Part shown: positions 11,532 through 60,519 of the stretch, piece after piece
Numbering within the stretch: the first letter of the stretch is position 1
Layout of the letters: each line of letters starts with the position of its first letter
IMG/VR virus record: IMGVR_UViG_3300028559_000005
From: a virus
Lineage: Duplodnaviria; Heunggongvirae; Uroviricota; Caudoviricetes
Strand: one strand, 5' to 3'
Length of the DNA: 64,000 bases
Made by a program: the position numbers and the translations under genes
The notes under the pieces: model-generated
The model's database searches: none
Told to the model about the DNA's origin: nothing
The model's input: only the letters and a program-made list of their open reading frames with translations

Positions 11532-11587
11532 TCCTGCCAATCTCCTGCAATTATTTATTCCTCGGGGACTGGCAGAAATTTTATAAG

Positions 11588-23900: not shown

Positions 23901-24407
23901 TCAACAAACACAGTACCTAAACCTGATGTTCCTACAATCAATGAACTTGATACCGCATATCAAGGACTTGAATCTTACAAAATGATATCTGACAATATAG
24001 TATTAAATTCAGTATCATTCAAACCATTGTTTGGACCCAAGGCAGCTGAAAATCTACGTGCAACTATCAAAGTAATACGTACTGCCAATTCCACTGCTAG
24101 CGAAAGTGAAATTAAAACTCTGGTAGTGGCCAATTTGAATGAATATTTCAGTATTGACAAATGGAATTTTGGCGATACGTTTTATTTCTCAGAACTGGCT
24201 GCTTACATACACAGAAACATGGGCGGCATTGTAAGTTCAGTGGTCTTGGTGCCATTAGATCCATTGAAATATTTTGGTGACTTGTATGAAATAAATTCAG
24301 CACCAAATGAAATATTTGTCAATGGTGCTGGCGTAAGCTCAGTAGAAGTTATTACTTCCTTGACTTCAACTAATATTAGAACTGCACCTGGCAGCGGAGT
24401 AATTTAA
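20937..24407 (+). CDS. gp6: Baseplate wedge subunit, gp6-like (baseplate J family)
   Basis: [13 protein letters not shown]...[64 protein letters not shown]. Confidence 0.85.
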
Positions 24408-42905: not shown

Positions 42906-42934
42906 TAGACTTTTTCTTTTTATTCGTTTATAAT
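42906..42934 (+). promoter_or_regulatory. Sigma70-type promoter at the start of the modification island
   Basis: TAGACT-17 nt-TATAAT, 6 nt upstream of the ATG at 42941. Confidence 0.55.
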
Positions 42935-42940
42935 ATTTGA

Positions 42941-43246
42941 ATGAATACAGACAATTTAATTTCTCATGCAAAAGCACGATTTGATCATGTGGCTGCACGC
43001 CGTGTGTTGAAAGAAAAATACGAAGCTCGAATGCTGTTTGCATATGGAGGAGGGATGTGGCGTGCTGGTCCTGAACTGATCACACTACTACATGCTTGTC
43101 TACAAGAACAAGCAGTATTGCTGGATCTTTATGAAACCCCAGTCAAGATAACTATTGCAGATCTACAGTTGTTAGCTCAGCGTCATTGGCAAGAACAAAT
43201 GAACGCTTGGTTGGTAGAGAATGAACAATTGAATAAAAAACGATGA
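42941..43246 (+). CDS. Hypothetical protein
   Basis: 101 aa; its stop overlaps the next start (ATGA). Confidence 0.7.
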   Translation: MNTDNLISHAKARFDHVAARRVLKEKYEARMLFAYGGGMWRAGPELITLLHACLQEQAVLLDLYETPVKITIADLQLLAQRHWQEQMNAWLVENEQLNKKR

Positions 43247-44046
43247 CCACAGGTGCATTGATATTTGCATTTGACAATGAGCAAACCGACTATATTAGTA
43301 TGGCTGCTTGGAGTGCAGAGCGTATACGTCGACATTTAAAAATACCCACAGCCGTAATAACAGACTGCACAGATCCGTCACGATTGACCAAATTTGATTG
43401 TGTGATATCAGCAGATCCGGTCAGCGGCGGAACAAGATTTTTTGAAGATTATCAAAACACATTAACATGGTACAATGCCGGCAGGGTGGACGCATACACG
43501 TTAACTCCTTGGGAGCAGACCCTGGTATTAGACGCCGACTATGTTGTTTGCAGTGATCAGTTGACTGCGGTGATTGATAGTAAAAAAGATTTTTTATCTC
43601 ATCGGTTGTCCTGGGATATCACAGGGGTCAATGACTTCAAAGGGTTAAACTGGTTTGGTGATAATCACATGCCCATGTGGTGGGCCACTGTTATGATGTT
43701 TCGTAAAAGTCCCACAGCTGAACATATTTTTGATTGCATGAAAATGGTCAAAGATAATTGGGTACATTACAAAGACTTATATCATAGTCATGGGGGTAAT
43801 TTTCGCAATGACTATGCATTGAGCATTGCATTGGGTATAGAGAGTGGTCATACATTAAATGTAGACAATATACCGTGGAACTTGGCAGCTATTATTTCTA
43901 GCTATAACTTAAAGCAACTCGGCCCAGATCATTTTCAAATTGAATATTTTAACCAAGACAAGTTAAAAACAATTGATTGGCAGAACATGGATTTTCATGC
44001 CATGTGCAAACAACAGTTAGGAGACATCGTTGCCAATACAGTGTGA
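43243..44046 (+). CDS. GT-A fold glycosyltransferase-like protein (GT8-like)
   Basis: TPWEQTLVLDADY DxD motif; WATVMMF. Confidence 0.6.
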   Translation: MTTGALIFAFDNEQTDYISMAAWSAERIRRHLKIPTAVITDCTDPSRLTKFDCVISADPVSGGTRFFEDYQNTLTWYNAGRVDAYTLTPWEQTLVLDADYVVCSDQLTAVIDSKKDFLSHRLSWDITGVNDFKGLNWFGDNHMPMWWATVMMFRKSPTAEHIFDCMKMVKDNWVHYKDLYHSHGGNFRNDYALSIALGIESGHTLNVDNIPWNLAAIISSYNLKQLGPDHFQIEYFNQDKLKTIDWQNMDFHAMCKQQLGDIVANTV

Positions 44047-44803
44047 ACGCGGCTATTTAATAATGGCACAAAATTCTGAATCAGTTGATTATGTTGACTG
44101 TGCAAATCAACTGGCTCGATCTATTCGACATTTTCATCCTGATGCTAAAATTTGTTTGTTATCCAACACAGATTTGCCCAATTCCAATTTGTTTGATTAT
44201 CATCAGACTTTTCCATATCCGCTGAGTGATAACCCGTATGCTAATGACTGGCAGGTATTTGGAGCCAGTCCTTTCAGACAAACTATCAAACTTGAAGCAG
44301 ATATGATTATTGCCAGTGCGATAGATCATTGGTGGACTATGTTAGAGCATAGAGATGTGGTGATATCCACTGGTGCAAGAGATTTTTATGATCAAAAAAC
44401 TACCAACAGATTCTATAGAAAAGTTTTTGATTCTAACAATTTGCCGGATGTATACAATGCTATAACATACTGGAGACTAAGTCAAACTGCACAAGAATTT
44501 TTTCAATTAGTAAGGATAATTTTTGAAAACTGGGCACAATACAAGACTTTAATAAAATTTCCTGATGAAATTCCATCAACGGATTTAGTTTATGCCATGG
44601 CAGCACAGATCATGGGCCCCGAACGTGTGACCATGCCGTTTGTGAGTTATCCTCGTATTGTACATATGAAACGTGGTATAATTCCAACACGTTTAGAAAA
44701 TTGGACACAAGAATTAATTTGGGAATCCAATCCATTAAGGATTCAGACTGTGGCACAATGGGGCGCAGTGCATTATCATCAAAAGGACTGGCGCAATGAC
44801 TGA
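44030..44803 (+). CDS. GT-A fold glycosyltransferase-like protein (paralogue of 43243-44046)
   Basis: GYLIMAQN...DYV, SPFRQTIKLEADM (ExD variant). Confidence 0.55.
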   Translation: MPIQCERGYLIMAQNSESVDYVDCANQLARSIRHFHPDAKICLLSNTDLPNSNLFDYHQTFPYPLSDNPYANDWQVFGASPFRQTIKLEADMIIASAIDHWWTMLEHRDVVISTGARDFYDQKTTNRFYRKVFDSNNLPDVYNAITYWRLSQTAQEFFQLVRIIFENWAQYKTLIKFPDEIPSTDLVYAMAAQIMGPERVTMPFVSYPRIVHMKRGIIPTRLENWTQELIWESNPLRIQTVAQWGAVHYHQKDWRND

Positions 44804-45140
44804 ACAAGAATTTTTAGATTTTTGGGAAACAATCAAGTGGCCTGAAATCAACCCAGTTTTTTATAGATTATATCATGACGATACTGGGTTGCCGTTGTTT
44901 TACAGTCAAGAAGATTTGCCTGGTAAGTACATTGATATCACACCCGCACAGTTTGCATTGCAAAATATGGCAGTACGAGTAGTTGATAAAAAACTCATCC
45001 AATACAAAACTATTTGGGTTAACAAACTTGTAACTGCTGACTCAGGAACACTTTGTCACAGTCAAGATGTAACTATTGTAGTTGCCGATCAATCAGGAAA
45101 ATACTGGAAGAAACAAGAAAATGTCATTGAAACAAATTGA
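44796..45140 (+). CDS. Hypothetical protein
   Basis: 114 aa; overlaps both neighbours in operon fashion. Confidence 0.65.
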   Translation: MTEQEFLDFWETIKWPEINPVFYRLYHDDTGLPLFYSQEDLPGKYIDITPAQFALQNMAVRVVDKKLIQYKTIWVNKLVTADSGTLCHSQDVTIVVADQSGKYWKKQENVIETN

Positions 45141-46035
45141 TGTAGCTGATCTAGATTGCATCTATCTAAGTTACGACGAGCCACAAAAGGAAGAACACTG
45201 GGTCAAGATACGTAATCTAGTGCCCTGGGCCACACGAGTAGACGGAGTCAAAGGATCAGATGCAGCACACAAAGCAGCAGCAACAGCCAGTACCACGGAA
45301 CGTTTTATCTTGATCGATGGTGATAATCTTCCAGATCCAGAGTTTTTTAATCAAACATTGACATTTCCTACAGATGATTACGAACATGCTGTGTTTAGAT
45401 GGAAGGCTCGTAACCATGTGAATGGACTCATGTACGGCAACGGTGGTCTAAGTTCTTGGACCCGGCAGTATGTGCAAAATATGCACACACACGAAAACAC
45501 AGACGGCCGTACCGAAACCCAAGTGGAGTTTTGTTTTGACCCACTATATTGGGCCATGCATGATAGTTATTCAACCACTTATCCTAATGGATCTGCATTT
45601 CACGCCTGGCGTGCTGGATTCCGTGAAGGAGTAAAAATGTGTTTGGATCGAGGGCGTAGACCCACCGTGACTGAATTTCAATCTCGTGTGCATCGACGCA
45701 ATCTTGACCATCTCACCATCTGGCATAATGTGGGTGCAGATGCAGATTACGGATATTGGGCTATAGCAGGCGCACGCCAGGGCACATACATGACCATGCT
45801 CACAAACTGGGATTACTTACAAGTGCAAAATTTTGATACACTGAGTGAATTGTGGCTCACAGTAAAAGATGAACAGCCAGAACATGTGAGTAACAACATT
45901 GCCAACGAATTACATACACAATTGGATCTTCCCATGCACATGCTTACCGTAGAGGCCAGTGCATTTTTTAAACATCATTATTGTAGCAACTGGCAAAACC
46001 GTGGTGTCATGGTGAGAGAGATAGATGCAAGATAA
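45121..46035 (+). CDS. Glycosyltransferase-like protein (GT-A-like)
   Basis: LDCIYLSYDEP, RVDGVKGSDAAHKAAA, RFILIDGDN (DxD). ATG at 45121 is preferred as the start. Confidence 0.55.
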   Translation: MSLKQIDVADLDCIYLSYDEPQKEEHWVKIRNLVPWATRVDGVKGSDAAHKAAATASTTERFILIDGDNLPDPEFFNQTLTFPTDDYEHAVFRWKARNHVNGLMYGNGGLSSWTRQYVQNMHTHENTDGRTETQVEFCFDPLYWAMHDSYSTTYPNGSAFHAWRAGFREGVKMCLDRGRRPTVTEFQSRVHRRNLDHLTIWHNVGADADYGYWAIAGARQGTYMTMLTNWDYLQVQNFDTLSELWLTVKDEQPEHVSNNIANELHTQLDLPMHMLTVEASAFFKHHYCSNWQNRGVMVREIDAR

Positions 46036-47405
46036 TGTCAGAAAACAAAAGTAAATTCTTATCTTCGGCTGAGAAGATGCAAGCTGATCTAGGGCCAGCA
46101 CTATGCCTGGCCAAATGGAAACAGGTCAGCTTGCATCTGACCACCGGGTTAAATAACAGTTGCTATCATCCACCGTTGCATACGATAGATCCTGAAGAGA
46201 TAGCGACCAATCCGGCTGCTTTGCATAACACACGGCATAAAAAAGCACAACGAAAAATAATGCTACAGCAGCAACGTCCTACTGAATGTTCTTACTGTTG
46301 GAACATGGAGGATCTTGGCAAACTAAGTGATCGACATTACAGATCAGGTGAACCCTGGGCTGCGGTGGATTTTGAAAAGATAAAAAACTCAACTGGTGAT
46401 GAAGATGTTATACCGTCGTATGTGGAAGTTAACTTTAACAATGCTTGCAATCTTAAATGCAGTTATTGTAGCCCGCAGTTTAGCTCTAGCTGGCAGCAAG
46501 AAGTTGAACGACATGGCGCATTTCCTACTCTGGTCCCTCATAACGCTCCTGAGCATTTTAGCGGCCATCGGAAGCCTATTCCTGCCCGTGATCACAACCC
46601 TTATGTAGAAGCATTTTGGTCATGGTGGCCTAGTCTATACTCTGAGCTTAAACACTTTCGCATGACTGGTGGAGAACCTCTAATGGATCGGAACACCTAT
46701 CGAGTGTTTGACTATGTATTAGAACATCCAAAAAACGATCTACATCTAGCAGTCACATCGAACTTCAGTGTAGAGCCTGAACTATCCAGCAAATACTTTG
46801 GATATGTGAAACGCTTATGCGATACTGATATCGAACATTTCATGCAATATGTAAGTCTCGATTCGGGCATAGGGCCGCAAGCTGAATACATCCGTCATGG
46901 ATTGGACTTTGCCCGATTGCAGAACAATGTGGAAACATATCTCACAGATATTCCATATCGTAACAGTCTTACATTTATTGTGACCATGAACAATTTGTCA
47001 GTGACTGGCTTCTTACCATTGATAAAATGGATACTAGATCTACGCCGCCGTCATAGTAAAACATATCAACGTGTGTGGTTTGATACACCTGTGCTACGAC
47101 AACCTGCATGGCAGAGCCTTCAGACTTTGCCCGAGAGCTATGCTACAAAACTAGAACAAGCACGAGACTTTATGTTAGAAAACTTAGAGACTGGATCCAA
47201 CCCGTTCCATGGATTCAAGGACTATGAAGTGCAACGTCTTGAGCGTGATATAGATTGGATGCGATCATCTGCACCTCAACCTACTGCGCTGGCAGACTTT
47301 TATAGATTTTTTAACGAACACGATCGACGTAGAGGTACAGACTTTGAGAAGACATTTCCTGAAATGTTGACCTGGTGGAAACAGTGTGGTTTACATGCTC
47401 GATAA
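46035..47405 (+). CDS. Radical SAM protein 1 with an N-terminal twitch-like domain
   Basis: CLAKW...SCYHPP...CSYCW; CNLKCSYC; GGEP. Confidence 0.88.
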   Translation: MSENKSKFLSSAEKMQADLGPALCLAKWKQVSLHLTTGLNNSCYHPPLHTIDPEEIATNPAALHNTRHKKAQRKIMLQQQRPTECSYCWNMEDLGKLSDRHYRSGEPWAAVDFEKIKNSTGDEDVIPSYVEVNFNNACNLKCSYCSPQFSSSWQQEVERHGAFPTLVPHNAPEHFSGHRKPIPARDHNPYVEAFWSWWPSLYSELKHFRMTGGEPLMDRNTYRVFDYVLEHPKNDLHLAVTSNFSVEPELSSKYFGYVKRLCDTDIEHFMQYVSLDSGIGPQAEYIRHGLDFARLQNNVETYLTDIPYRNSLTFIVTMNNLSVTGFLPLIKWILDLRRRHSKTYQRVWFDTPVLRQPAWQSLQTLPESYATKLEQARDFMLENLETGSNPFHGFKDYEVQRLERDIDWMRSSAPQPTALADFYRFFNEHDRRRGTDFEKTFPEMLTWWKQCGLHAR

Positions 47406-47558
47406 TCTACAATTTGTGTCAATAGAATCTTGCAAGTTTCCTTGATTGGTGCTGTAATATATTGTAAATACAACCAACAACATTTAATAGAACTTTACGC
47501 TCTAATTCAAAGTGAGTTTCTTGGCCGTTTTTGGCAATTCCTACATACAACAATATAA

Positions 47559-48896
47559 ATGACTGATCTAGAATTCAAGCAACAGGTGCTAGACACCAAG
47601 AGTGCAAGTTTTTGTGCAGCCAAATGGTACAATGCTACCATTTGGCTTGGCAGCGGTATGACTACCAGCTGCCATCACCCGCCAGCTCATTTGGTAGACC
47701 GAGATAAAGTCACCACCAACCCCAAGCTGCTGCACAATACTGATCAAAAGAAAGAAGACCGTCGTAAAATGCAAGCAGGCGAACGTCCTGCAGGTTGTGA
47801 ATACTGTTGGAAAATTGAAGACATGGGCAGCGATGCTATCAGCGACCGTGTGTACAAAAGTAAAATTTATCCTATTGAGGCGTTAAGTGAAGCATATGAC
47901 ACTTTGCCCAATCAGGACGTTAATCTTCGTACCTTAGAAATTGCTTTTGATCGCACCTGTCAGTTTGCTTGTAGCTATTGTAATCCTGCTTTCAGCAGTA
48001 CATGGGTCCGAGACATACATCAAAATGGACCTTATCAAGGGCTTGTGTCTGATGGTCGCAATCATTTCACTCACAAACATACAAGCAGTCAATTGTATCG
48101 TGTTGGTGAAACAAATCCTTACGTGGAGGCGTTCTTTGCCTGGTGGGAAAGTGATCTTCATAAAACACTTGAAGAACTGAGAATCACTGGTGGCGAACCA
48201 TTGATGTCTGTTGAGACTTGGAAACTGATTGACTGGTTTCGAAACAATCCTGGCCGTAGCCAAACACGACTGGCCATCAATTCAAATCTAGGCACAGCAG
48301 TGGATCTAGATCGATTGCTAGGCAGCATTGAAGGATTAGAAGTTGACCTTTACACATCCAACGAAAGCACAGGACTACAGGCTGAATACATTAGAGATGG
48401 ACTGATTTGGGATGATTGGACAAACAATGTAGAACGATTATTAGACAGTGGCCAATTCCGTGTAATACATGTGATGAACACCATTAATGCATTATGTCTA
48501 GACAGTTTGGATCAATTCTTAGAACGTATGCTACAATGGAAAACCGAATATGGGCGTGATGCTCTGAGCTTTACACTGAATATACTTCGATTTCCTAGTT
48601 TTCAATCACCATTGGTATTGCCTGATAATTTACGTATGCTATATGCACACAAGTTAGAGTCCTGGCTAATTGCCAATCAACACAATGAATTCTTACACGA
48701 GCATGAAGTCAATCATCTTCAACGGCTAATAGATTATCTGGATATAGTAAAAACTCCACATTCGGGATCATTTGAAATGCCCAAGTTGTTAAACGATTTC
48801 AAAAAATTCTATACACAGTATGACCAACGACGCAATAAAGATTTTGGCCATGCATTTCCTGCATTAAAACCATGGTATGACTCAATACAAATATAA
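47559..48896 (+). CDS. Radical SAM protein 2 with an N-terminal twitch-like domain
   Basis: FCAAKW...SCHHPP...CEYCW; CQFACSYC; GGEP. Confidence 0.88.
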   Translation: MTDLEFKQQVLDTKSASFCAAKWYNATIWLGSGMTTSCHHPPAHLVDRDKVTTNPKLLHNTDQKKEDRRKMQAGERPAGCEYCWKIEDMGSDAISDRVYKSKIYPIEALSEAYDTLPNQDVNLRTLEIAFDRTCQFACSYCNPAFSSTWVRDIHQNGPYQGLVSDGRNHFTHKHTSSQLYRVGETNPYVEAFFAWWESDLHKTLEELRITGGEPLMSVETWKLIDWFRNNPGRSQTRLAINSNLGTAVDLDRLLGSIEGLEVDLYTSNESTGLQAEYIRDGLIWDDWTNNVERLLDSGQFRVIHVMNTINALCLDSLDQFLERMLQWKTEYGRDALSFTLNILRFPSFQSPLVLPDNLRMLYAHKLESWLIANQHNEFLHEHEVNHLQRLIDYLDIVKTPHSGSFEMPKLLNDFKKFYTQYDQRRNKDFGHAFPALKPWYDSIQI

Positions 48897-50136
48897 CAGC
48901 AGTGATCTAGTTCGATCCACTAATCTCACAGACCGTGAGAAATTTTTACTAACTGATTCAAAGACTTTTTGCATATATCCTTGGATCCACTTACATGCTT
49001 ATCCAACTGGCGAAGCATATCCCTGTTGTCATTCAGAGATGAAGTATCCTGTAGGTAATTGCAGAACCAATACTTTAGAAGAGATCTGGAAAGATCTTCC
49101 CATGCAGCAATTAAGAGCTGACATGCTGAGCGAAACTCCTAACCCAGCATGCGAGCGCTGCTACGAACAAGAGCAATCAGGATTTTTCTCTGGCAGAAAA
49201 AGTGCAAACAAGCATCACGGGCATCAAATCAAGAAACTTGAAGATAATCCATTTGAAATGACCTATTGGGATATACGGTTCTCAAATCTTTGCAATTTAA
49301 AATGCCGTAGCTGTGGGCATATTTTTTCAAGCCAATGGTATCAGGATCAAGCCGAGTTGGCTGGCAAAGGGTGGAAAGATCAAAATCAAGTATTGAACTA
49401 TGCTGGTCGAACAGAAACTGACATGTGGGAACAGTTGTTACCTCATCTGGATTATGTTGAGCAAATATACTTTGCCGGCGGCGAGCCTTTGTTGATGGAA
49501 GAACACTATAACATATTAGACGAACTGGTACGCAGAGAAAGATTTGATGTCAGACTGATCTATAACACTAACTTTACACATACCAATCTTAAAGGAAAAA
49601 GCGTTTTTGAATACTGGAAACTGTTTAATAGTGTATCAGTAGGTGCCAGTTTAGATGGGTCAGGTCAATATGCCGAGTACATAAGAAAAGGTACTCGATG
49701 GGAACAAATTGAAAAAAATCGAGTTGAGATGATGAAGATATGTCCTAACGTGGATTTTTACATCAGTCCCACCTTGAGCATTCTGAATGCTTGGCATTTA
49801 CCTGACTTTCATAAAGATTGGGTTGAACGTGGGTTTATTAAACCACAAGACCTCAATGTAAATATTCTTCAAGATCCGCTATTTTACAGAATTGATATTG
49901 CACCAATGAAGTACAAACAACGTTTGCGCATCAAGTATCAAGAACATATTGAATGGTTACGTGCGCAAGATCCGTTGCAACGTGCCACAGTGGGATTTGA
50001 ATCAGCTATCAAGTTTTTAATGGCTACTGACAACACTCAGCTCATTGATACTTTTTGGAGGAAAACGCACGAGCTCGACAGCATCAGATCAGAGCAACTG
50101 CTAAATATCATACCAGAGTTAAAAGCGTTACTGTGA
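48877..50136 (+). CDS. Radical SAM protein 3 with an N-terminal twitch-like domain
   Basis: FCIYPW...PCC...CERCY; CNLKCRSC; GGEP. Confidence 0.88.
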   Translation: MTQYKYNSSDLVRSTNLTDREKFLLTDSKTFCIYPWIHLHAYPTGEAYPCCHSEMKYPVGNCRTNTLEEIWKDLPMQQLRADMLSETPNPACERCYEQEQSGFFSGRKSANKHHGHQIKKLEDNPFEMTYWDIRFSNLCNLKCRSCGHIFSSQWYQDQAELAGKGWKDQNQVLNYAGRTETDMWEQLLPHLDYVEQIYFAGGEPLLMEEHYNILDELVRRERFDVRLIYNTNFTHTNLKGKSVFEYWKLFNSVSVGASLDGSGQYAEYIRKGTRWEQIEKNRVEMMKICPNVDFYISPTLSILNAWHLPDFHKDWVERGFIKPQDLNVNILQDPLFYRIDIAPMKYKQRLRIKYQEHIEWLRAQDPLQRATVGFESAIKFLMATDNTQLIDTFWRKTHELDSIRSEQLLNIIPELKALL

Positions 50137-51344
50137 AAATTCCCCACAATCAATTCTGTGTGTTGCCTTGGATTAGCTTAGAAGCCAGTCCTATTGGCAC
50201 AGTAAGACCTTGCTGCCTAGCCGATGACGAGATAGTAGACAATGATGGAAATAAATTTACTCTAACCACAGCTGAGTTTTCAGATATTCAGCGCAGTAAT
50301 CACATGCAAAAATTGCGGTTAGACTTTCTCGATGGCAAGAAATCTGCTACTTGTCGTAAATGCTGGAATGAAGAAGAATCAGGACGCACATCAAAACGTA
50401 TGCACACGTTAGATCGTCTCAAACATACATTAACTGATGAACATTGGACTATAGATCCAAAACCTTTGCAGTCATTGGATCTAAAATTAGGCAACATCTG
50501 CAACCTAAAGTGCCGTATATGCGGGTCTTGGTCAAGTTCACAATTTGCTGGTGAAGAAATTTCATTCTTACCACGAACAGAACAAAAATCTAGTTATGCG
50601 TATAAAATGCTACGTGCTGGTGCATGGCCTAAAGAGAACAATCATTTCTGGCAGCAAATTGATTCAGTGTTGAATGATATACGTTATATTGAATTCACTG
50701 GCGGCGAACCATTCATGATTGATCAACACTTTGATATGCTGCAAGGCATAGTAGATCGCGGCATCGCTAGCCAAGTGGAGATACATTATAATACCAATGG
50801 TACATTGTTTCCTGATCGTGGCGTGGACATATGGAAACATTTTAAAACAGTAGAGATAGCATTTTCAATAGATGACATCAGCGCACGGTTTGAATATCAA
50901 CGCTCAAACGCCGCCTGGGATACCGTAAAAGAAAACATCAATCGTTTCAGAATCATGCGTGAAGGTATGTCTAACTTACAGTTACAATGCTGCACCACTG
51001 TGAATGTTTTTAATGTGAGATACCTCGACGAAGTAGCATCATGGATAGCATTACAAGATTTTGATTTTGTTTATTGGAACATGATGCACGATGCTTGGTA
51101 TTTTTCAATATCAAGACTGCCCGCAGATGCCAAGCAAGAAATTGCAAGCCATCTCAGCATGTGTGATGCTTCAGAAATATATAGATCTGATTTTGAAAGA
51201 ATTATCAATTTTATGAACAACGGTGAATCCATGGATGGTGAAGAAACACGATCTCAGATTCGACTATTGGATCATCGTAGGAATCAGGATTTAAATTGCA
51301 ATCATCCTGAATTGGCACTTTTACTGAATTATGCAAAAACCTGA
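50133..51344 (+). CDS. Radical SAM protein 4 with an N-terminal twitch-like domain
   Basis: FCVLPW...PCC...CRKCW; CNLKCRIC; GGEP. GTG at 50133, overlapping the previous stop, is preferred as the start. Confidence 0.88.
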   Translation: MKIPHNQFCVLPWISLEASPIGTVRPCCLADDEIVDNDGNKFTLTTAEFSDIQRSNHMQKLRLDFLDGKKSATCRKCWNEEESGRTSKRMHTLDRLKHTLTDEHWTIDPKPLQSLDLKLGNICNLKCRICGSWSSSQFAGEEISFLPRTEQKSSYAYKMLRAGAWPKENNHFWQQIDSVLNDIRYIEFTGGEPFMIDQHFDMLQGIVDRGIASQVEIHYNTNGTLFPDRGVDIWKHFKTVEIAFSIDDISARFEYQRSNAAWDTVKENINRFRIMREGMSNLQLQCCTTVNVFNVRYLDEVASWIALQDFDFVYWNMMHDAWYFSISRLPADAKQEIASHLSMCDASEIYRSDFERIINFMNNGESMDGEETRSQIRLLDHRRNQDLNCNHPELALLLNYAKT

Positions 51345-52620: not shown

Positions 52621-53653
52621 TAACTCAATTGAAATAGATTTGCGTGACAACAATAATCAATTGCTAACAGTTTATATTGACGTGTACAATAACAGTCTTG
52701 CACGTAAATGGATCACAGCATTAAACCACTTGATTGAATTTGACTATCATTTGGAAAAAAATTACTGTTGGCTAGGCTGGACTGAGAATCAACGAAATCT
52801 AGATTATATCTGTACACAAATTAATAACAGCATTCATGCAATCAATCAGGCTCAGTTAGGATACGTAATACAAGATTTTTTTAGCCCGGCTAATACTGTA
52901 ACAGAAAACGGCGGCATTAATCAAGATCATATGAACCAATTGCACAGATATTTTGAAGATCTCCAAGGGGTATCAGGATCAATGAGCCCTTACTATACCG
53001 CAGCCGACGATTTTACAAGATGGCACATTAGACAATTAAATCTATTATGTCATGAACTTGAAAGTTTGGTATTAAGCATACGAAAATTACTCACAGCACC
53101 AGAATGGCGTAGACCATCACAATTGATGTGTTGGCTACGGGCTCCTAGATTCACACTAGACCCTGCCGATTACGAATTGTTTGGAGTTGACACAATCAAT
53201 CGACAGCTTGGTGGAGTATATGTGGGTGTTAATAAAGCAGTAGGCAAACACCATTGGGAAGTATTCAATGATGAAGGAAGAGACAGCCGTGTTGGTGAAT
53301 TAGTCACAAGCACACTTAGATCACAAACTGAAGCTGCCGGAGACTTTGATATTGAATGGGCCAATGATCCAGGATCATTTCCGTGGCAGATCAAAATGCT
53401 CAAAGAATTTCGTGAATGGCTTAGAGCCAATGGATTCGATCCTGATGATAAATCATTAACCATTGGGCATCCAAAAGTAGCACAAGTAGATTTGATACGT
53501 AGTTTTGGGACTACAGACTATCAAGTGATATGGAAAAAACTAGCTGAACATTTGAATGTATATAAAATACGCACTTCAAAATTTCAAGCTACATATGAAT
53601 ATAATTGGAGTGATCCTGATTATGATCAACAACAAATAAGGAAATTAAAATGA
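52613..53653 (+). CDS. Hypothetical protein
   Basis: 346 aa; overlaps both neighbours; no motif recognised. Confidence 0.7.
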   Translation: MLDNSIEIDLRDNNNQLLTVYIDVYNNSLARKWITALNHLIEFDYHLEKNYCWLGWTENQRNLDYICTQINNSIHAINQAQLGYVIQDFFSPANTVTENGGINQDHMNQLHRYFEDLQGVSGSMSPYYTAADDFTRWHIRQLNLLCHELESLVLSIRKLLTAPEWRRPSQLMCWLRAPRFTLDPADYELFGVDTINRQLGGVYVGVNKAVGKHHWEVFNDEGRDSRVGELVTSTLRSQTEAAGDFDIEWANDPGSFPWQIKMLKEFREWLRANGFDPDDKSLTIGHPKVAQVDLIRSFGTTDYQVIWKKLAEHLNVYKIRTSKFQATYEYNWSDPDYDQQQIRKLK

Positions 53654-53751
53654 ACTGGATTCGACACATTTGGGCAAAGATTACTCTAGAGATTCGTTAC
53701 CGTAAAAAATTAAAAGAACTACGCAAGCGCGATCCTTTTATCTACAAATGA
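53650..53751 (+). CDS. Small basic 33-aa peptide (below the ORF-track cutoff)
   Basis: MNWIRHIWAKITLEIRYRKKLKELRKRDPFIYK; ATGA overlaps at both ends fill the gap exactly. Confidence 0.65.
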   Translation: MNWIRHIWAKITLEIRYRKKLKELRKRDPFIYK

Positions 53752-55226
53752 ATTACATAGGAATATCTGCTGGGTTCCATGATGCTGCTATCAGTGTAAT
53801 CAATGACGCTGGAGATATTTTGTTTGCAGCACACAGCGAACGTTATAGTAAGAAAAAACATGACAAAGATGTATGTGCAGAGTTATTAGTTGATGCATTG
53901 GCGCATGTAGATTCAGACAGCATTGAATATCATTATTATGAACGTCCTTGGGTTAAAGCTCTAAGACAATTGCGCAGTGGCGAAGGGTTTCAATGGCCCA
54001 CCTGGGATAAATTATTAGGTAACACTTACAATCACATGGGTCGGCCGCGTGTGCATACACATGCACATCATTTGTGTCACGCAGCAGCAGGATTCCAAAC
54101 TAGTCCTTATGCAGATGCCACAGTGGTAGTTATTGATGCCATTGGTGAGTTTGATACAGTGACCATATGGGATGCCACATACAATGCCAATGGTCGTGCT
54201 GAATACAAAAAGTTATGGAGTCAGCAGTATCCACACAGCATTGGGTTGTTTTATTCCGCAATGACTCAACGTGTAGGACTACACCCATTGGATGAAGAAT
54301 ACATACTCATGGGCATGGCTGCATACGGGATGCCACAGTATCTTAGAGAGATGCAACAGCAATTTTTGAATTCAAAAGATAATTCACAGTTTGTGCAAAA
54401 TTTGCACATTGGAGTTGATCAAGAATTTTTACCCAATGCCGACCCAATGGATATTGCATGTAGCGCACAGATTTTAACAGAGCAATTGATACGCAATGTT
54501 ATCAGTCGTGCCAGGCAATTGGGAACAAGTAAAAATTTAGTGTACGGTGGCGGTGTGGCATTAAACTGTGTGGCCAATCGTTTACTGGGAGATTTTTATG
54601 AAAACATTTGGATTGTACCCAATCCTGGTGACGCAGGAAATAGCCTTGGCGCGGCGGCGTTGGGATTAGGCAGTCAAGTCAAGTGGGATACTGCTTTTCT
54701 TGGCCACAACATTGCTGGCGAGTACCCTGTTAACGACATACTTGATGTGTTACTTACTGATTGTATTGTTGGTGTTGCATCCGGTCGTGCAGAATTTGGT
54801 CCTCGAGCGCTGGGCAATAGAAGCTTACTTGCAGATCCCCGAGGACATTTGATCAAGAACAAAGTAAACGAAATCAAACAACGACAGAAATTTAGACCAT
54901 TTGCGCCAGTTATTCTTGAAGAATATGTACATGACTATTTTGAAATGCCCAGACACTGGAATAACAGTAGATACATGCAAGTGGTTGCTACTTGCAAGAA
55001 TCCTGAGTTGTTTCCTGCTATTGTTCATCATGATGGTACCAGTCGTGTACAAACTGTTCCAGCTGATGGGTCAGGCATCCGAGCTTTATTGGAAAAATGG
55101 AATTTTATGACTGGATGCCCTATGCTATTAAACACCAGCCTTAACATACGTGGCAAGCCAATGGTCAATGATCGTTGGGATGCTGATCGATTCCAGCAGT
55201 GCTATCAAGTCAAAGTTTGCAGTTAA
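53748..55226 (+). CDS. Carbamoyltransferase (NodU/CmcH/TobZ family)
   Basis: GISAGFHDAA, HHLCHAA, DAIGE, GGVALNCVAN, PGDAG, EFGPRALGNRS, FRPFAP, DGTSRVQTV, LLNTSLN. Confidence 0.92.
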   Translation: MNYIGISAGFHDAAISVINDAGDILFAAHSERYSKKKHDKDVCAELLVDALAHVDSDSIEYHYYERPWVKALRQLRSGEGFQWPTWDKLLGNTYNHMGRPRVHTHAHHLCHAAAGFQTSPYADATVVVIDAIGEFDTVTIWDATYNANGRAEYKKLWSQQYPHSIGLFYSAMTQRVGLHPLDEEYILMGMAAYGMPQYLREMQQQFLNSKDNSQFVQNLHIGVDQEFLPNADPMDIACSAQILTEQLIRNVISRARQLGTSKNLVYGGGVALNCVANRLLGDFYENIWIVPNPGDAGNSLGAAALGLGSQVKWDTAFLGHNIAGEYPVNDILDVLLTDCIVGVASGRAEFGPRALGNRSLLADPRGHLIKNKVNEIKQRQKFRPFAPVILEEYVHDYFEMPRHWNNSRYMQVVATCKNPELFPAIVHHDGTSRVQTVPADGSGIRALLEKWNFMTGCPMLLNTSLNIRGKPMVNDRWDADRFQQCYQVKVCS

Positions 55227-56397
55227 TACAATCTACAACAGTTTGTAATCTATGAGCCATACCAGCCTGGAACACATTAGAATTGTGTTGTATCTCAGGT
55301 GCCAGATCAATATACAATTGATGTAAATTTTTAAGACCAGAACGTATCAATGATTTTGTAATATCCAACACAGCTTCAAATCGTTGTTGATTGTCGGCAA
55401 TTGAATCATAATTTTCATCTATACATCGACCAAAAGTTTGATATCCTAAGTCACGCAAATGACGTTGATGATCAACTGAACTCACAGCTACAAAAAATTG
55501 ATTGTTGAATATGGGTTTAAATGTTTTTTCTGTGATAAATTGGCCATTAGATGAATCCACATCAATCATGGTTTCTAACACAATGTTAAAATAGCTTTCT
55601 GCGTAGAGCGCAGTCATGTTTTCATGATAGTTATTATGGGCTGCTGTATCAAGATCATCCACACGAAATGGTCCTGATGCAACAAACTCATTGACTCTTG
55701 ATTGGCATTCAGCAAGATAATTATTATTTAATGCACACCCATGATAGTCGTCTTCGGATCCTAGCAAATGTTGATTATAACTGAAATAACCACGCTGGTG
55801 TAATCCATGACTCCATAAATCGCTCATGAATACTTTGCGCCATAGTTTGTCAACTCTGCACAAGGATATGTAGGCTCGTGATCTTGGCTGCAAATGATAA
55901 ATTGCACCGTACTTACGATTTACAGTACGCCAATACATAAATTCTAATTCGGGCCAGTACACAGTATTGTGATATTGGTCAGCCGACGAATTACCAGAAA
56001 TTAACCATACTAGTTCTGAGTCTATATTATGCTGATAGCACAGGTCATCTAATCGTTGTCGTATAGGACCCGGATGATCTCCTTCATGGTACGTAAACAC
56101 CAGTTTTATTTCTTTTTTCTTCAAACGTGCCAATGCCTGCCCACTGATTAAACTTAGATAATCTTGAGAAAAATCAAACCATCCTATCACTACTGGATAC
56201 CACGCACCTACTGGAGCGTTAGACGTCAGTACCGTTGCAGATGGAATATTGCAATCTCGAAGATAATGTATAATACGAGGAAAATCTAATCTTTGTCCGT
56301 CCTGGTAATCCAATTGATCATGTAAATGAATAGGGATACCATTAGGCATGGGCTTGCATGTGCCTGGATGTATGTGATCCACTGCTATATAAATCAT
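55210..56397 (-). CDS. Hypothetical protein, possibly glycosyltransferase-related
   Basis: C-terminal SYFNIVLET...FITEKTFKPI motif is reminiscent of the C-terminal lobe of exostosin/GT-B-like proteins. Confidence 0.45.
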   Translation of the reverse strand: MIYIAVDHIHPGTCKPMPNGIPIHLHDQLDYQDGQRLDFPRIIHYLRDCNIPSATVLTSNAPVGAWYPVVIGWFDFSQDYLSLISGQALARLKKKEIKLVFTYHEGDHPGPIRQRLDDLCYQHNIDSELVWLISGNSSADQYHNTVYWPELEFMYWRTVNRKYGAIYHLQPRSRAYISLCRVDKLWRKVFMSDLWSHGLHQRGYFSYNQHLLGSEDDYHGCALNNNYLAECQSRVNEFVASGPFRVDDLDTAAHNNYHENMTALYAESYFNIVLETMIDVDSSNGQFITEKTFKPIFNNQFFVAVSSVDHQRHLRDLGYQTFGRCIDENYDSIADNQQRFEAVLDITKSLIRSGLKNLHQLYIDLAPEIQHNSNVFQAGMAHRLQTVVDCINCKL

Positions 56398-56432
56398 TTG
56401 TTTAGTGACAGAAATTATGTTATAATTACTTT

Positions 56433-57749
56433 ATGTTTGATATTGTAATTATGAATATGGGAGGGCATTCGTCGAATGTGGAGTATTTACGTGATCGATT
56501 GCCGCATGCCAAAATAGTTAATTGGACTGATCACCTGTCTACTATTCGTCGAGGATCTCAAAATATACGAACTAGATATTTTTGGGTGTTGAGCAGTTGT
56601 TGTGATTACAGTGACTTTGATTTTTTATGGGAGCCTACTCCGTGGCAAAGTCACCAAATACATTGTTGGCCCAGCGGCGACCAACAATTTGGTGATACAT
56701 TTTTAATACCAACAGCTCAGTGGAATCAACAAAAAGATTCATTGGCAAGATTGGAACAATATAAAGATGTAAATTTCGAACATGAATCTGTTGCTAGATT
56801 ACCTTGGCAAAAAATACAATACAATCAAGACAGTGTGGTTGCTGCTATTGCTAGTTCACAATGTCATACTCCGTATGTGTTGTTTGAACATGAAAATAAC
56901 CCAGTGACTGTGCAACCTGACCCGTGGCTATGGAGAGAACAGCCAGTGGTTGGACTTACTAGCAATCAAGCATCCTGTTTGGTACCAAGAAATGCACATG
57001 GGAGTATCCGCAAGCAAGTGTATGACTATCAATATTTACAAAAGAAAAATTTAAATCCCAGTCAACAGTTAGACATAGTATTCATTTCAAATGGAGAACT
57101 CAATGCTGAACAAAATCTCAAACGTTTAATTCTATTGCCCAAGACAAATCGCACAGTGCGAGTAGACAGCATCAACGGACGAGCAGCAGCATATCACGCA
57201 GCAGCAAGACTCAGCACCACACCGTGGTTCTTTGCTGTGTTTGCCAAGCTAGAAGTGGATATTGATTTTGATTGGTCATGGCAACCAGACTATATGCAGC
57301 AGGCCAAGCATTATATCTTTCATGCCAAAAATCCGTGCAATGGCTTGGAGTACGGGCATCAGGCCATGATTGCATACAACAAACAACTGGTGTTAAACAA
57401 CCCAGGTGTGGGATTAGATTTCACACTAGATTCACCGCACGAAGTGGTGCCAATTGTGAGTGGCATAGCTGCTTACAACACCTCGGACTGGAGCACCTGG
57501 CGCACAGCCTTTAGAGAAGTGCTAAAGTTGCGAGCCAGCTTGCCCGATATAGAAAATGAATATCGTATACAGCAATGGCTAACACAAAATCAAAGTGTTC
57601 GCAGTGCATTGAGTGCAGCAGGCGCACAAGATGCTCTAGACTACTATAATGAAGTAGCCGGAGACTTTGATCAACTAAAGAAAAGCTATGAATGGGAATG
57701 GTTAGCTAGCTATGCTTTTTTCAAACGGCAGCTAACACCGAATCAATAA
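56433..57749 (+). CDS. Multi-domain glycosyltransferase-like protein (C-terminal domain paralogous to 45121-46035)
   Basis: LDIVFISNGE...RVDSINGRAAAYHAAA...NGLEYG...WRTAFREVLKL. Confidence 0.55.
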   Translation: MFDIVIMNMGGHSSNVEYLRDRLPHAKIVNWTDHLSTIRRGSQNIRTRYFWVLSSCCDYSDFDFLWEPTPWQSHQIHCWPSGDQQFGDTFLIPTAQWNQQKDSLARLEQYKDVNFEHESVARLPWQKIQYNQDSVVAAIASSQCHTPYVLFEHENNPVTVQPDPWLWREQPVVGLTSNQASCLVPRNAHGSIRKQVYDYQYLQKKNLNPSQQLDIVFISNGELNAEQNLKRLILLPKTNRTVRVDSINGRAAAYHAAARLSTTPWFFAVFAKLEVDIDFDWSWQPDYMQQAKHYIFHAKNPCNGLEYGHQAMIAYNKQLVLNNPGVGLDFTLDSPHEVVPIVSGIAAYNTSDWSTWRTAFREVLKLRASLPDIENEYRIQQWLTQNQSVRSALSAAGAQDALDYYNEVAGDFDQLKKSYEWEWLASYAFFKRQLTPNQ

Positions 57750-58794
57750 TATGATCAATTTCTAGATCAGTAAGTTCTGGATAAAATGGCAATGAGATAC
57801 ATCGTCGTGACAGACTTGATGCCACACTCAACAAACTGGGTCCTTTGAGGTTTTGATATGCATCAAGTTCGTGCAAGGGACTACGATAATGAATCTTGGT
57901 ATCAATTTGGCAAGCAGAAAGATGTTGTTGCAATTGACTTTGATTATCTACTTCAATCACAAACTTTTGTAATGCATGGCTTCTAAAGTTAGTATCATCA
58001 ATCAAACACCTAACGGAACGGTCTTCTAGCCTGGTCATCCAGTATCTTGCTATCTTGCTTCTGCGTAGTTGCCAGTCGTCTAGGTATTGAGTTTTGACCA
58101 TCATCTGAGCACAATCAATTTCACTCATGCGACTGTTTGTGCCAATTACACTGTGCCCGCTGGCCTTGCCATTATTGATCCAGTTACGGGCATAGTCGGC
58201 TAGATACAAATCAGAGGTTACCACTGCACCACCATTGCCGTAGTTGGGAAGATTCTTTGTAGGATCAAAACTGATAGCAGTGGAGTTAGATTGTCGTTCA
58301 CAGTTGTTTGAAAGCCAGTGTTGAGCACCATCTTCAATTAAACAATCAGTCATAGTATTCCATCTGTGTTGTAATGCAGAACCATATAACCCCACAACAC
58401 AAATAGCATCATACTCATTTTTAATCTGAAAAGGATCCATACATCCATATGAATCAGTATCAACAATTTCTACTTGCCAACCTGTTTTCATAAATGCATT
58501 GACCGTAGCAGGATATGTCATGGCTGGAACTAGCACTGTGGGAGTTTTATCGTGATCACGAATGTGACTAAAACAGTAACCAGCAATGATTTCCAACGCC
58601 TGTGTTCCAGAGTGACAGGTTACTGCATATGAATTATGATTCTTTTTGGCCAACCATGATTCAAACTCAGCAGTATAGTTGCCATCCATAAGATTTCCAG
58701 AACGCAACACTATATCGGTTGCATCCAGGATCTCTTCACGTAGATTATTATACTGTTGGCGGAGACCAGTGAAGGGAATGGTAAGATTAGACAT
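57721..58794 (-). CDS. DegT/DnrJ/EryC1/StrS PLP-dependent sugar aminotransferase
   Basis: SGTQALE, TYPATVNA, IEDGAQH, SFDPTKNLPNYGNGGAV (PLP lysine), NSRMSE, SLPFYPEL. Confidence 0.9.
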   Translation of the reverse strand: MSNLTIPFTGLRQQYNNLREEILDATDIVLRSGNLMDGNYTAEFESWLAKKNHNSYAVTCHSGTQALEIIAGYCFSHIRDHDKTPTVLVPAMTYPATVNAFMKTGWQVEIVDTDSYGCMDPFQIKNEYDAICVVGLYGSALQHRWNTMTDCLIEDGAQHWLSNNCERQSNSTAISFDPTKNLPNYGNGGAVVTSDLYLADYARNWINNGKASGHSVIGTNSRMSEIDCAQMMVKTQYLDDWQLRRSKIARYWMTRLEDRSVRCLIDDTNFRSHALQKFVIEVDNQSQLQQHLSACQIDTKIHYRSPLHELDAYQNLKGPSLLSVASSLSRRCISLPFYPELTDLEIDHIIDSVLAAV

Positions 58795-58922
58795 TTAATA
58801 ACCAATAAACGGAATGATTGATTAATAACATTATGTATTTACAGAACAAATATACTCAATGCTATTGAGCAACAGCAAGGTCAATGACTGATTATTTTGA
58901 AAGACATCATATTATTCCTAAA

Positions 58923-59894
58923 TCACTTTGATAATTGTGCAGCCCAGTAGGATGACTGGCTAAGCCACTCATAATAATTTTCAAAACCTTCTTCAACATC
59001 AATTTTGGGATTGTAACCTAACATTGCTCTAGCACGGTCAATATTCAATGCACCACGTGATGGAAAATCTGCATCTTTGTCTTTGCATTCAATAGAGCCT
59101 TTGCCAACAATTTTAACAATCATTTTTGCGGCTTCCAACAGGCTCACACTGTGTGATTTAGTAATGTTGTAAGTGCTGTCGCGGGCCATGATTCGAGTTG
59201 CAGCCGCCACAATACCATCCGCAGCGTCATCCACATATGTAAAGTCTAAGGTTTCTCCGGCTCCGTTGACTCGGAGGGTACCACCACGCATTGCGGTAAG
59301 CATAAATTTCGCAACAACCCGATCTTCCACGTCTAACGGTCCATACACTGCCGACGGACGGATGATAACATATTCCATGCCTGTTTTTCTTGCATAGTCT
59401 TTAACAAGCCATTCTCCTGCTAGTTTCATGATACCGTATTGTCCTTGAGGCCTGCATTCATCATCTTCCAACGCTTGATCTTCAAAGTCTCCGTAGACCA
59501 TTGAGCTAGAGATGTAAACAAAACGGCGAACATTGTGTTTTTTGGCACTCTCAAGCAGGTTGATCAAGCCCTTCATCATAACATCTGCACCCCAGCTAGG
59601 GTTGGCATTGACCACTTTCTGTCTAGGAAAGCTGGCACAATGCACAATGACTTCTGGTTGTTCTTTCTCTATAATCCAATCAATTTCATAACTGTTTGTG
59701 ATGCACTGATTATGGTATGTGTGAGGATCTAATTTTTTAAGACGTTCCCCTATCAAATAATCAATCTCTGCTGATGGAATAATACCATAGGTGGTATGTG
59801 TGTCTACTACAGCAACGTCTTCATCTTGTGCTTGCAACCGTTGAACCACATTATGTCCAATAAGTCCGTGCCCACCTGTTACTAATATTTTCAT
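58923..59894 (-). CDS. NAD-dependent nucleotide-sugar epimerase/dehydratase
   Basis: ILVTGGHGLIG, YISSSMVYG, YGIMK (YxxxK), RPSAVYGP, DFTYVDD. Confidence 0.9.
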   Translation of the reverse strand: MKILVTGGHGLIGHNVVQRLQAQDEDVAVVDTHTTYGIIPSAEIDYLIGERLKKLDPHTYHNQCITNSYEIDWIIEKEQPEVIVHCASFPRQKVVNANPSWGADVMMKGLINLLESAKKHNVRRFVYISSSMVYGDFEDQALEDDECRPQGQYGIMKLAGEWLVKDYARKTGMEYVIIRPSAVYGPLDVEDRVVAKFMLTAMRGGTLRVNGAGETLDFTYVDDAADGIVAAATRIMARDSTYNITKSHSVSLLEAAKMIVKIVGKGSIECKDKDADFPSRGALNIDRARAMLGYNPKIDVEEGFENYYEWLSQSSYWAAQLSK

Positions 59895-60490: not shown

Positions 60491-60519
60491 AGTGTAGCAC
60501 AGAGACTGTTACTTTGCAA
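60491..60519 (-). promoter_or_regulatory. Possible sigma70-type promoter
   Basis: TTGCAA-17 nt-TACACT, 5 nt upstream of the ATG at 60485. Confidence 0.4.

Follow-up and report, generated by a model that had tools for sequence, protein, structure and literature searches.

A jumbo-phage gene island joining five N-twitch radical SAM proteins to viral glycosyltransferases: a probable glycan assembly and tailoring pathway

The 64,000-nucleotide stretch of DNA analysed here, referred to throughout as the window, is from the virus record IMGVR_UViG_3300028559_000005, and its source is a jumbo myovirus-type phage. Following its fibre-like genes, the window carries an island of ~17 kb (positions 42941-59894) that encodes five glycosyltransferase (GT)-type proteins, five radical SAM proteins, a carbamoyltransferase, a DegT aminotransferase, a short-chain dehydrogenase/reductase (SDR) and three to four proteins that bear no family name. 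Most of the plus-strand genes overlap the preceding stop codon, by 1-20 nt; such stop/start overlaps had been pointed out in an earlier sequence-only reading of this DNA. Most island genes are translationally coupled. We consider it highly probable that the island is a phage-encoded pathway for glycan assembly and tailoring. Relative to what is known, the new element is an ordered set of N-twitch radical SAM proteins that is wired into a viral sugar pathway and fixed beside a Ser/Thr-rich fibre protein. A more specific reading, on which our judgement is evenly balanced, is that the pathway operates in the cytoplasm, where it would glycosylate virion proteins and then modify the attached glycan through amination, carbamoylation and radical reactions.

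Five N-twitch radical SAM proteins in one operon

Five tandem plus-strand genes encode the radical SAM proteins. The first two, at 46035-47405 and 47559-48896, belong to a KW..SC subtype and the other three, at 48877-50136, 50055-51344 and 51331-52620, to a PW..CC subtype; the fourth protein probably starts near position 50133, because the 403-404-residue proteins of its relatives begin at the previous stop codon. The first is 36% identical to the product of a gene in Ralstonia phage RsoM2USA. The sequence-only reading had recognized five tandem radical SAM genes and, indeed, all five products match NF033640 (N_Twi_rSAM; 398 model positions, curated cut-off of 170 bits) end to end, from model positions 1-3 to 388-398, with scores of 316, 290, 390, 323 and 288 bits, respectively. 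Matches to PF04055 have E-values of 1e-4 to 2e-9, and four of the five fall under the Pfam gathering score.

The catalytic motifs are intact. The CX3CX2C motif, the GGEP motif and four N-terminal twitch cysteines are invariant in all five proteins, which share 20-28% pairwise identity. As in NF033640, the four-cysteine twitch domain lies ahead of the CX3CX2C core: C32, C51, C92 and C95 precede C139, C143 and C146 of the core, the Pfam SPASM match (residues 8-104) stands ahead of the Radical_SAM match in three paralogues, and in the third protein SPASM residues 32-96 come before the core. The earlier comparison with BtrN does not hold at the level of sequence: the window proteins have the opposite domain order and yielded no significant BtrN match. 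Weak, sub-threshold similarity to peptide maturases and anSME-type enzymes was found, and some JGI names read ‘sulfatase maturation enzyme’. NF033640 itself is a catalogue family without an assigned reaction, and we found no paper on this N-twitch subfamily in the published literature.

A tree built from 155 N-twitch proteins pairs every one of the five paralogues with a separate orthologue in the related loci L003, L006 and L019 and in the distant locus L021; all four loci keep the same gene order. The five radical SAM proteins are thus old and non-redundant. Compared with NF033640 at large, this system stands out for an operon that unites five orthologue groups in a fixed order and for 8-16 copies per genome in complete relatives: the related complete genomes (G003, G004 and G005; loci L183-L189) each have that number of N-twitch radical SAM genes above the NF033640 cut-off, distributed over several loci.

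An alignment of three of the paralogues served as query for loci with N-twitch radical SAM genes. The bacterial contexts examined were split with respect to the substrate. On a Methylomagnum plasmid and a Crocinitomicaceae chromosome the genes lie with GT2, GT4, GT39, UbiA, carbamoyltransferase, sulfotransferase and PhyH genes, and these two are loci for glycoconjugate tailoring. In Paenibacillus and Eubacterium they lie with acyl carrier protein (ACP) and ketosynthase genes, an acyl-AMP ligase and one GT2. Metagenome-assembled genomes (MAGs) of Bdellovibrionota and Bacteroidota hold multi-copy N-twitch arrays, and in the loci examined there none of the viral GTs described below (families A, B and C) occurs. 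Because the window proteins belong to an uncharacterized subfamily whose bacterial members also occur in lipid/ACP clusters, the earlier proposal that such enzymes oxidize sugars is only an analogy. Our working model is the abstraction of a hydrogen from a sugar C-H bond, which would lead to oxidation, epimerization or deoxygenation. BtrN, NeoN and AprD4 are the analogues behind this model.

Glycosyltransferase families and sugar-modifying enzymes

None of the GT-like genes received a name from Pfam, NCBIfam or PHROG. The sequence-only reading had counted four to five of them, and folds now substantiate this for two families, here called A and B, while family C is weakly supported. The family A protein encoded at 45121-46035 (+) was modelled with an AF2 pLDDT of 93.1 and has a GT-A core at residues 5-156. 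The core is Rossmann-like, and the aspartates of its DxD motif, D66 and D68, are nearly invariant. VIA Z scores were 9.6 to B4GALNT1, 9.0 to the archaeal-virus GT STIV A197, 8.3 to SunS, 7.5 to the chlorovirus capsid GT PBCV-1 A64R and 7.3 to Mimivirus R655; matches with Z of 8-9.6 extend over ~140 residues and include B4GALNT1, CHSY3-CHPF, STIV A197, SunS and SpsA. Among 50%-identity cluster representatives, 1,171 are related to family A at E ≤ 0.001. No curated GT family model is matched significantly; the sole name near family A is ‘Glycosyltransferase 2-like’, assigned automatically to an Atlas cluster nearby. A second family A domain, paralogous to the first, forms residues ~212-424 of the two-domain protein encoded at 56433-57749 (+). 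Versions of this protein in relatives are 733-2132 residues long, and one, the 2132-residue fusion at L008:11491-17889, has repeated N-domains of the 56433 type with the family A GT domain at its end.

The family B gene (55210-56397, minus strand) encodes a full-length GT-B fold (AF2 pLDDT of 84.6). Its two Rossmann-like domains align over the whole protein with solved GT-B enzymes, its 50 best Foldseek matches are all GT-B enzymes, and its structural alignments, with Z of 12.7-10.5, span 250-296 residues. The highest VIA Z score was to the T4 β-glucosyltransferase (12.7), followed by EXT1 and GT10 fucosyltransferases (~11) and the T4 α-glucosyltransferase (10.8). For membership in GT10 there is no Pfam match, an Atlas lead of 0.79, and Z of ~11 to three GT10 enzymes, which ties with other GT-B families. 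In locus L008, a 799-residue fusion (4477-6876) joins a UDP-Glc/GDP-Man dehydrogenase to a family B GT domain, and this fusion links family B to nucleotide sugars. A family B homologue with 67% identity, P0237, is recorded on a JGI contig of 697 kb; the complete relatives are about half that size.

Family C consists of two putative GT-A (GT8-like) paralogues, encoded at 43243-44046 and 44030-44803 on the plus strand. They are 21% identical and share an LDAD motif with an invariant aspartate and, towards the C-terminus, an H..K pair; the second also has a weak match to phrog_1903. The family C profile matches only glycogenin-1 (GT8) chains, and does so weakly (E = 0.1), with compatible motifs. 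Family C has a homologue in phage RsoM2USA.

The enzymes that would supply and decorate sugars could be assigned more directly, and the NodU-family carbamoyltransferase and the DegT aminotransferase of the sequence-only reading were both corroborated. The NodU/TobZ-type O-carbamoyltransferase (53748-55226, +) matches PF02543 (E = 1e-35; 122 bits against a cut-off of 24) and PF16861 (E = 1e-46; 159 bits against 27), and combines a Kae1-like N-terminal with a YrdC-like C-terminal domain. Its closest solved relatives are NovN (E = 9e-50), GdmN and TobZ, matched over both domains; the NovN alignment runs in three stretches over residues 10-475. The protein scores 120.5 bits against the cut-off of 1000 of the NodU equivalog NF041651, and is thus a member of the family rather than NodU itself. 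The DegT/DnrJ/EryC1 sugar aminotransferase (57721-58794, −) matches PF01041 in full length (E = 7e-55, 187 bits, residues 18-353). Its nearest solved relatives are a Gln:scyllo-inositol transaminase and then the 3-aminotransferases QdtB, DesV and WbpE; it reached none of the NCBIfam equivalogs, the best being PseC (118 bits against 423).

The gene that had been called an NDP-sugar epimerase (58923-59894, −) indeed encodes an extended SDR (PF01370, E = 1e-45), and its closest solved relatives are the 6zl6 epimerase, GalE and UXS (UDP-glucuronate decarboxylase). Its active-site region reads SSS and YGIMK instead of the dehydratase TDE and it misses the dTDP-glucose 4,6-dehydratase model TIGR01181 (132 bits against 365), so we file it under the nucleotide-sugar 4-epimerase/decarboxylase type and not with the dehydratases. 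Four segments of the island have no family name, namely 42941-43246, 44796-45140, 52613-53653 and the N-terminal half of 56433-57749. Among these, the 114-residue protein encoded at 44796-45140 (+) is present in 66 of 80 related loci, with no family match. The 346-residue protein encoded at 52613-53653 (+) is translationally coupled to the fifth radical SAM gene and conserved as far as the distant L021; none of its 5,145 homologues has a name or a Pfam domain, and it gave no Atlas match. No transmembrane-like segment was found in any island protein.

Conserved core, exchangeable modules and the candidate glycan acceptor

Immediately upstream of the island lie two plus-strand genes for Ser/Thr-rich, fibre-associated proteins, which are candidate glycan acceptors. 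The copies, at 40844-41824 and 41891-42886, are tandem duplicates with 81% identity and contain 33% and 30% Ser+Thr, respectively, compared to 15-23% in the other structural proteins of the window; the sequence-only reading had correctly seen that the island follows duplicated proteins of this composition. The property is one of the family, as its 89 members have a median of 29.5% Ser+Thr versus 15.3% in other open reading frames (ORFs). A PDB profile search with the family found no match. The homologue in RsoM2USA carries an N-terminal motif that resembles that of the window's fibre protein.

To describe conservation we used a set of 80 viral loci seeded with family A (58-90% identity), all of one lineage. 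The Ser/Thr-rich protein, the 101-residue protein encoded by the first island gene (42941-43246, +; no match in Pfam, NCBIfam or PHROG), both family C genes and family A occur in 80 of 80 loci and the fibre gene in 79, in a kept block order: fibre gene, Ser/Thr-rich protein, 42941 gene, the two GT8-like genes, GT-A gene, then radical SAM genes. Radical SAM genes are present in 77 of the 80 and family B in 52. Copy numbers vary among close relatives, with 1-7 radical SAM, 0-3 family B and 1-4 family A genes. In two natural variants, L147 and L148, the core is kept while radical SAM, carbamoyltransferase and DegT genes are lacking, and the core runs directly into the family A/56433-type gene, the SDR gene and ThyX. 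Thus, the island is built of an invariant GT core beside fibre genes plus exchangeable tailoring modules, in which DegT, the carbamoyltransferase and the radical SAM proteins are accessory rather than core. The genes travel together across related phages as a unit, and do so in modular fashion. In a second set of 14 viral loci, seeded with the carbamoyltransferase, radical SAM arrays (up to 7 copies) and families A and B persist at 49-58% identity; no Ser/Thr-rich neighbours were seen in the more distant of these loci, which may end short of that upstream region.

The arrangement extends to Ralstonia phage RsoM2USA, whose baseplate wedge protein is only ~33% identical to that of the window. 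The order there is the same: wedge gene, giant virion protein, structural proteins, homologue of the Ser/Thr-rich protein, two family C genes, family A, radical SAM and family A again. At the position of the window's 4730-residue ORF stands a 2541-residue virion protein, ORF361, that was found by mass spectrometry (MS).

Genome-wide tests were made on five related records, two of them complete with terminal repeats (364 and 337 kb), one 92% complete and two partial. These records contain no priming phosphoglycosyltransferase (PF02397, PF00953) and no Wzx flippase (PF01943). Since no island protein has a transmembrane-like segment either, the phage alone cannot make an exported, lipid-linked glycan. 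The same records hold no ThyA-family hydroxymethylase (PF00303), no C5 cytosine methylase (PF00145) and no TET/JBP (PF12851), though PF12851 also matched none of the control genomes, and no DpdA/TGT was found on the phage-like contigs of one MAG. The known routes to a sugar-accepting DNA base are thus absent in the relatives. Genes of the island type are placed among virion modules elsewhere. In G005, the major head protein gene is followed directly by an N-twitch radical SAM gene, next to a single gene that combines tetratricopeptide repeats (TPR) with a GT9-like motif, and in relatives the SDR, family B and two radical SAM genes are flanked by the large terminase on one side and a virion structural protein on the other. 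The pairing of TPR repeats with a GT-B domain is known from glycosyltransferases that act on proteins, OGT and FlmG among them.

Soluble enzymes, no route to a modified DNA base, a Ser/Thr-rich neighbour family and extra copies in virion modules together favour virion proteins as acceptors, and above all the upstream Ser/Thr-rich fibre-associated proteins, in line with the target suggested by the sequence-only reading, which gains from the linkage, the soluble enzymes and the radical SAM and GT genes beside head and terminase genes of relatives. Several observations weigh on the other side. What speaks for glycosylation of virion proteins is linkage and composition, and part of the linkage is inherited synteny, because all 80 loci belong to one lineage. 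The label ‘fibre-associated’ derives from position and a shared motif only, and the RsoM2USA homologue of the Ser/Thr-rich protein is itself not Ser/Thr-rich and not among the MS-identified virion bands. The genome-wide negatives come from relatives and not from the window phage's own genome. GT folds do not disclose acceptors; the top structural neighbour of family B, the T4 β-glucosyltransferase, is a DNA enzyme, and the putative GT assignment of family C is based on a profile match with E = 0.1. A sugar substrate for the radical SAM proteins is not a given, because bacterial N-twitch enzymes also occur in ACP/ketosynthase lipid clusters. Finally, jumbo-phage sugar clusters have been read as modifiers of host lipopolysaccharide (LPS) or capsule (PMC7824862).

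The negatives in the relatives bear on the two other targets that the sequence-only reading had kept in view, phage DNA and the host surface, and they weaken both the first and a self-sufficient form of the second. The island might remodel host surface glycans (LPS core, O-antigen or capsule), for example to block superinfection, with soluble GTs acting on lipid intermediates at the inner face and the host providing export. Such a role would follow the published interpretation of jumbo cyanophage sugar clusters (PMC7824862) and agrees with the bacterial N-twitch radical SAM genes found beside an ABC exporter, GT39 and UbiA in loci of the surface-polysaccharide type, as well as with GT and radical SAM copy numbers that vary among close relatives as they do in O-antigen loci. 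We nonetheless judge it unlikely: the island has no membrane-associated protein, the complete relatives lack PF02397, PF00953 and PF01943 matches, the invariant linkage is to a fibre-associated protein and not to an envelope gene, the extra copies adjoin head and packaging genes, and none of the bacterial loci examined has a viral GT of family A, B or C. Far less probable still is hypermodification of phage DNA with a tailored sugar, akin to the glucosylation of hydroxymethylcytosine in T-even phages. Phage GTs are classically DNA-modifying, both T4 glucosyltransferases (Z of 12.7 for the β- and 10.8 for the α-enzyme) are structurally near family B, the island abuts ThyX and replication-type genes, and diverse DNA glycans are known (preprint 10.1101/2023.12.21.572611). 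Against this, neither the two complete relatives nor the 92%-complete one matched a ThyA hydroxymethylase, a C5 methylase or TET/JBP (for TET/JBP the controls were blank as well), related phage contigs have no DpdA/TGT, ThyX implies an ordinary thymidylate supply, and family B, with its variable occurrence (52 of 80 loci), is not among the invariant genes, and it is those that are linked to the fibre protein.

Two further readings differ in what is made or in what the radical SAM proteins act upon. The combination of a twitch radical SAM protein, a DegT enzyme near Gln:scyllo-inositol transaminase and a TobZ/NovN-type carbamoyltransferase is aminocyclitol-like, and would suit a small molecule, free or bound to a lipid, for instance a glycolipid or a pseudo-oligosaccharide of the aminoglycoside kind, with no macromolecule decorated; the ACP/ketosynthase/acyl-AMP ligase clusters with GT2 that house N-twitch radical SAM proteins in Firmicutes point the same way, and a secondary-metabolite option has been raised for cyanophage carbamoyltransferase clusters (Iyer et al., PMC7824862). 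We regard this as improbable. No cyclitol synthase, exporter or self-resistance gene was found in the island, many relatives retain the GT core but not the accessory DegT and carbamoyltransferase genes, five GTs and multi-GT fusions of up to 2,132 residues are better suited to building an oligosaccharide, and the linkage to structural genes would be left unexplained. Alternatively, the GTs could decorate virion proteins while the radical SAM proteins act on protein rather than on sugars, through cross-links, epimerization or Ser/Thr oxidation. SPASM/twitch enzymes often modify peptides, the window proteins bear a weak, sub-threshold likeness to peptide maturases and anSME-type enzymes, and one relative has such a gene directly downstream of its major head protein. 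This too has a small probability in our estimate, as Pfam and NCBIfam scans revealed no RRE-type peptide-recognition domain in the island, the bacterial contexts examined show glycan or lipid genes and no obvious precursor peptide, and the arrays are accompanied by the carbamoyltransferase and the GT families in distant viral contigs. Also considered, and rejected, as overall explanations were a cluster for a ribosomally synthesized and post-translationally modified peptide, which would lack both a small ORF resembling a precursor and an RRE domain, and a role in tRNA modification, which nothing in the context supports.

Returning to glycosylation of virion proteins, the gene products can be arranged in a conditional scheme. 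The epimerase-type SDR and DegT would turn host nucleotide sugars into an amino sugar. The core, comprising the two GT8-like family C proteins and the family A GT-A enzyme, would begin and lengthen the glycan on its acceptor, and further residues would come from the GT-B enzyme and from the family A domain of the 56433-57749 protein. The carbamoyltransferase would then O-carbamoylate a sugar hydroxyl using carbamoyl phosphate and ATP. Each of the five radical SAM proteins may take a hydrogen from a specific sugar C-H, giving a ketone, an epimer or a deoxygenated product. By analogy, one radical oxidation of an alcohol to a ketone may supply the keto group that DegT aminates, as BtrN feeds BtrS; a radical SAM dehydrogenase that feeds a DegT enzyme is a plausible working model. 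With respect to the heavily tailored glycan proposed by the sequence-only reading, the assembly, amino-sugar and carbamoyl chemistries are thus borne out by the gene identities, and radical modification would be a predicted addition to them.

Source phage, expression signals and known systems

In the window, the baseplate wedge gene (20937-24407; phrog_10646, E = 9e-276) is followed immediately by the 4730-residue ORF (24407-38599, +), then by the fibre-like genes and the sugar island. The wedge protein has ~33% amino acid identity to those of the closest annotated phages, Salicola SCTP-2, Agrobacterium Atu_ph07 and Yersinia fHe-Yen9-04. No nucleotide-level match of the window to annotated phages was found; the relatives are distant and recognizable at the protein level only. 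The lineage is very common in metagenomes, with the third radical SAM protein (48877-50136) present in more than 120 clusters at ≥81% identity, on contigs that reach 348 kb. Related contigs include L019 and L020 (148-183 kb, in a ‘Haliscomenobacter sp.’ MAG) and L021 (43 kb, in a ‘Legionellales’ MAG). The whole viral island is present in L019/L020 (78-80% identity) and in L021 (52% identity), and these are almost certainly phage contigs that were binned with bacteria, so that their binning provides a weak hint to the host at most.

At its right border, the island meets the gene for a ThyX flavin-dependent thymidylate synthase (60509-61198, −; TIGR02170, 144 bits), which opens a minus-strand block of replication-type genes. 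In the same direction, 62557-63840 (−) encodes a 427-residue protein with an HExxH-like HEVLH and a DxSGS MIDAS-like DASGS; read from these motifs, it may be a VWA protein. PHROGs label it ‘HNH endonuclease’ (phrog_1314). Towards the other end of the window lies a sixth radical SAM gene of another type (5614-6714, −; phrog_21308), in which the radical SAM core comes first and a weak SPASM-like match is C-terminal. It adjoins the SbcC and SbcD genes, and at the syntenic position a relative, L189, has an N-twitch radical SAM gene. Between the SbcD gene and the gene for a late sigma factor is a homing endonuclease-like gene (10875-11540, −; phrog_314).

That late sigma factor is of the gp55 type (11588-12487, −; phrog_12791, E = 1e-77), and its gene has its own TAAATA 23 nt upstream. 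TAAATA is rarer than expected in the window (35 copies versus 53), and 11 of the 35 copies (31%) have a co-oriented start no more than 50 nt downstream, versus 5% for all A/T-only hexamers (P ~7e-7). The sequence-only reading had picked out two such late-like motifs in the island: the element at 58836-58841 (−), 41 nt upstream of DegT, is among the 11, whereas that at 47465-47470 stands 88 nt upstream of the second radical SAM gene and does not share the pattern. Late expression of the island would fit the element upstream of DegT and the presence of a gp55-type late sigma factor. A sigma-70-like promoter match ahead of the first island gene (42906-42934, +; TAGACT-17-TATAAT, 10 of 12 consensus positions) is a weak lead only, as such matches are no commoner than in shuffles; sigma-70-like and terminator-like sites in the window occur at or below chance.

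We found no published description of a phage island that combines N-twitch radical SAM proteins, a carbamoyltransferase and viral GTs, and its nearest parallels each share a part. In mycobacteriophages, virion glycosylation places glycans on the C-termini of capsid and tail tube subunits, as reported by Freeman et al. 2023 (PMC10527164, as cited in PMC12619734). There, too, phage GTs adjoin structural genes, and that system has been demonstrated experimentally whereas the island is known from its genes. To the mycobacteriophage scheme the island adds five radical SAM proteins, a carbamoyltransferase, an aminotransferase, an SDR, unnamed viral GT families and a Ser/Thr-rich, fibre-associated candidate acceptor. 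Giant viruses are described as having an autonomous glycosylation machinery, with chlorovirus A64R and the Mimivirus fibril glycans as examples (review, PMC9614988). The likeness lies in soluble GTs and nucleotide-sugar enzymes of viral origin that work on virion proteins in the cytoplasm, as is proposed for the island, and the similarity of family A to PBCV-1 A64R (Foldseek E = 4e-4) is one at the level of the GT-A fold only. These systems differ in belonging to eukaryotic viruses. To our knowledge, giant-virus glycosylation involves no radical SAM tailoring.

The jumbo cyanophage clusters named for ‘LPS/capsular polysaccharide modification’ hold NAD-dependent epimerase/dehydratases and several GT families, with carbamoyltransferases in a second cluster (Iyer et al. 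2021, PMC7824862); the article does not mention radical SAM enzymes and proposes a host-surface or metabolite target. The island differs from these clusters in being fixed beside fibre genes without export machinery. Aminoglycoside and noviose tailoring (BtrN, the BtrS-type DegT enzyme and TobZ/NovN) offers the same combination of chemistries; the island has no cyclitol synthase, and its context is one of viral structural genes. The T4 DNA β- and α-glucosyltransferases resemble family B as compact phage GT-B enzymes and are its nearest structural neighbours, but sequence identity is ~10% and no hydroxymethylcytosine pathway was found in the complete relatives.

Island genes are extremely common in metagenomes: homologues number in the thousands, and phage contigs in the hundreds. 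If the pathway does glycosylate virion proteins, NF033640 would gain its first biological role together with a tractable substrate, and new radical carbohydrate chemistry would be indicated. We put forward, tentatively and as the less probable outcome, that N-twitch radical SAM proteins perform a previously undescribed radical editing of protein-linked glycans, and that virions of this abundant lineage of freshwater jumbo phages are coated with amino, carbamoyl and keto/epi/deoxy glycans that are diversified module by module, like O-antigens. Even if the target should prove to be the host surface or a metabolite, the cassette would still be a defined and widespread pathway. If it is the virion, this would suggest that the host range, stability or defence evasion of phages in the environment varies to a large extent, and module by module, with the glycans on the particle.

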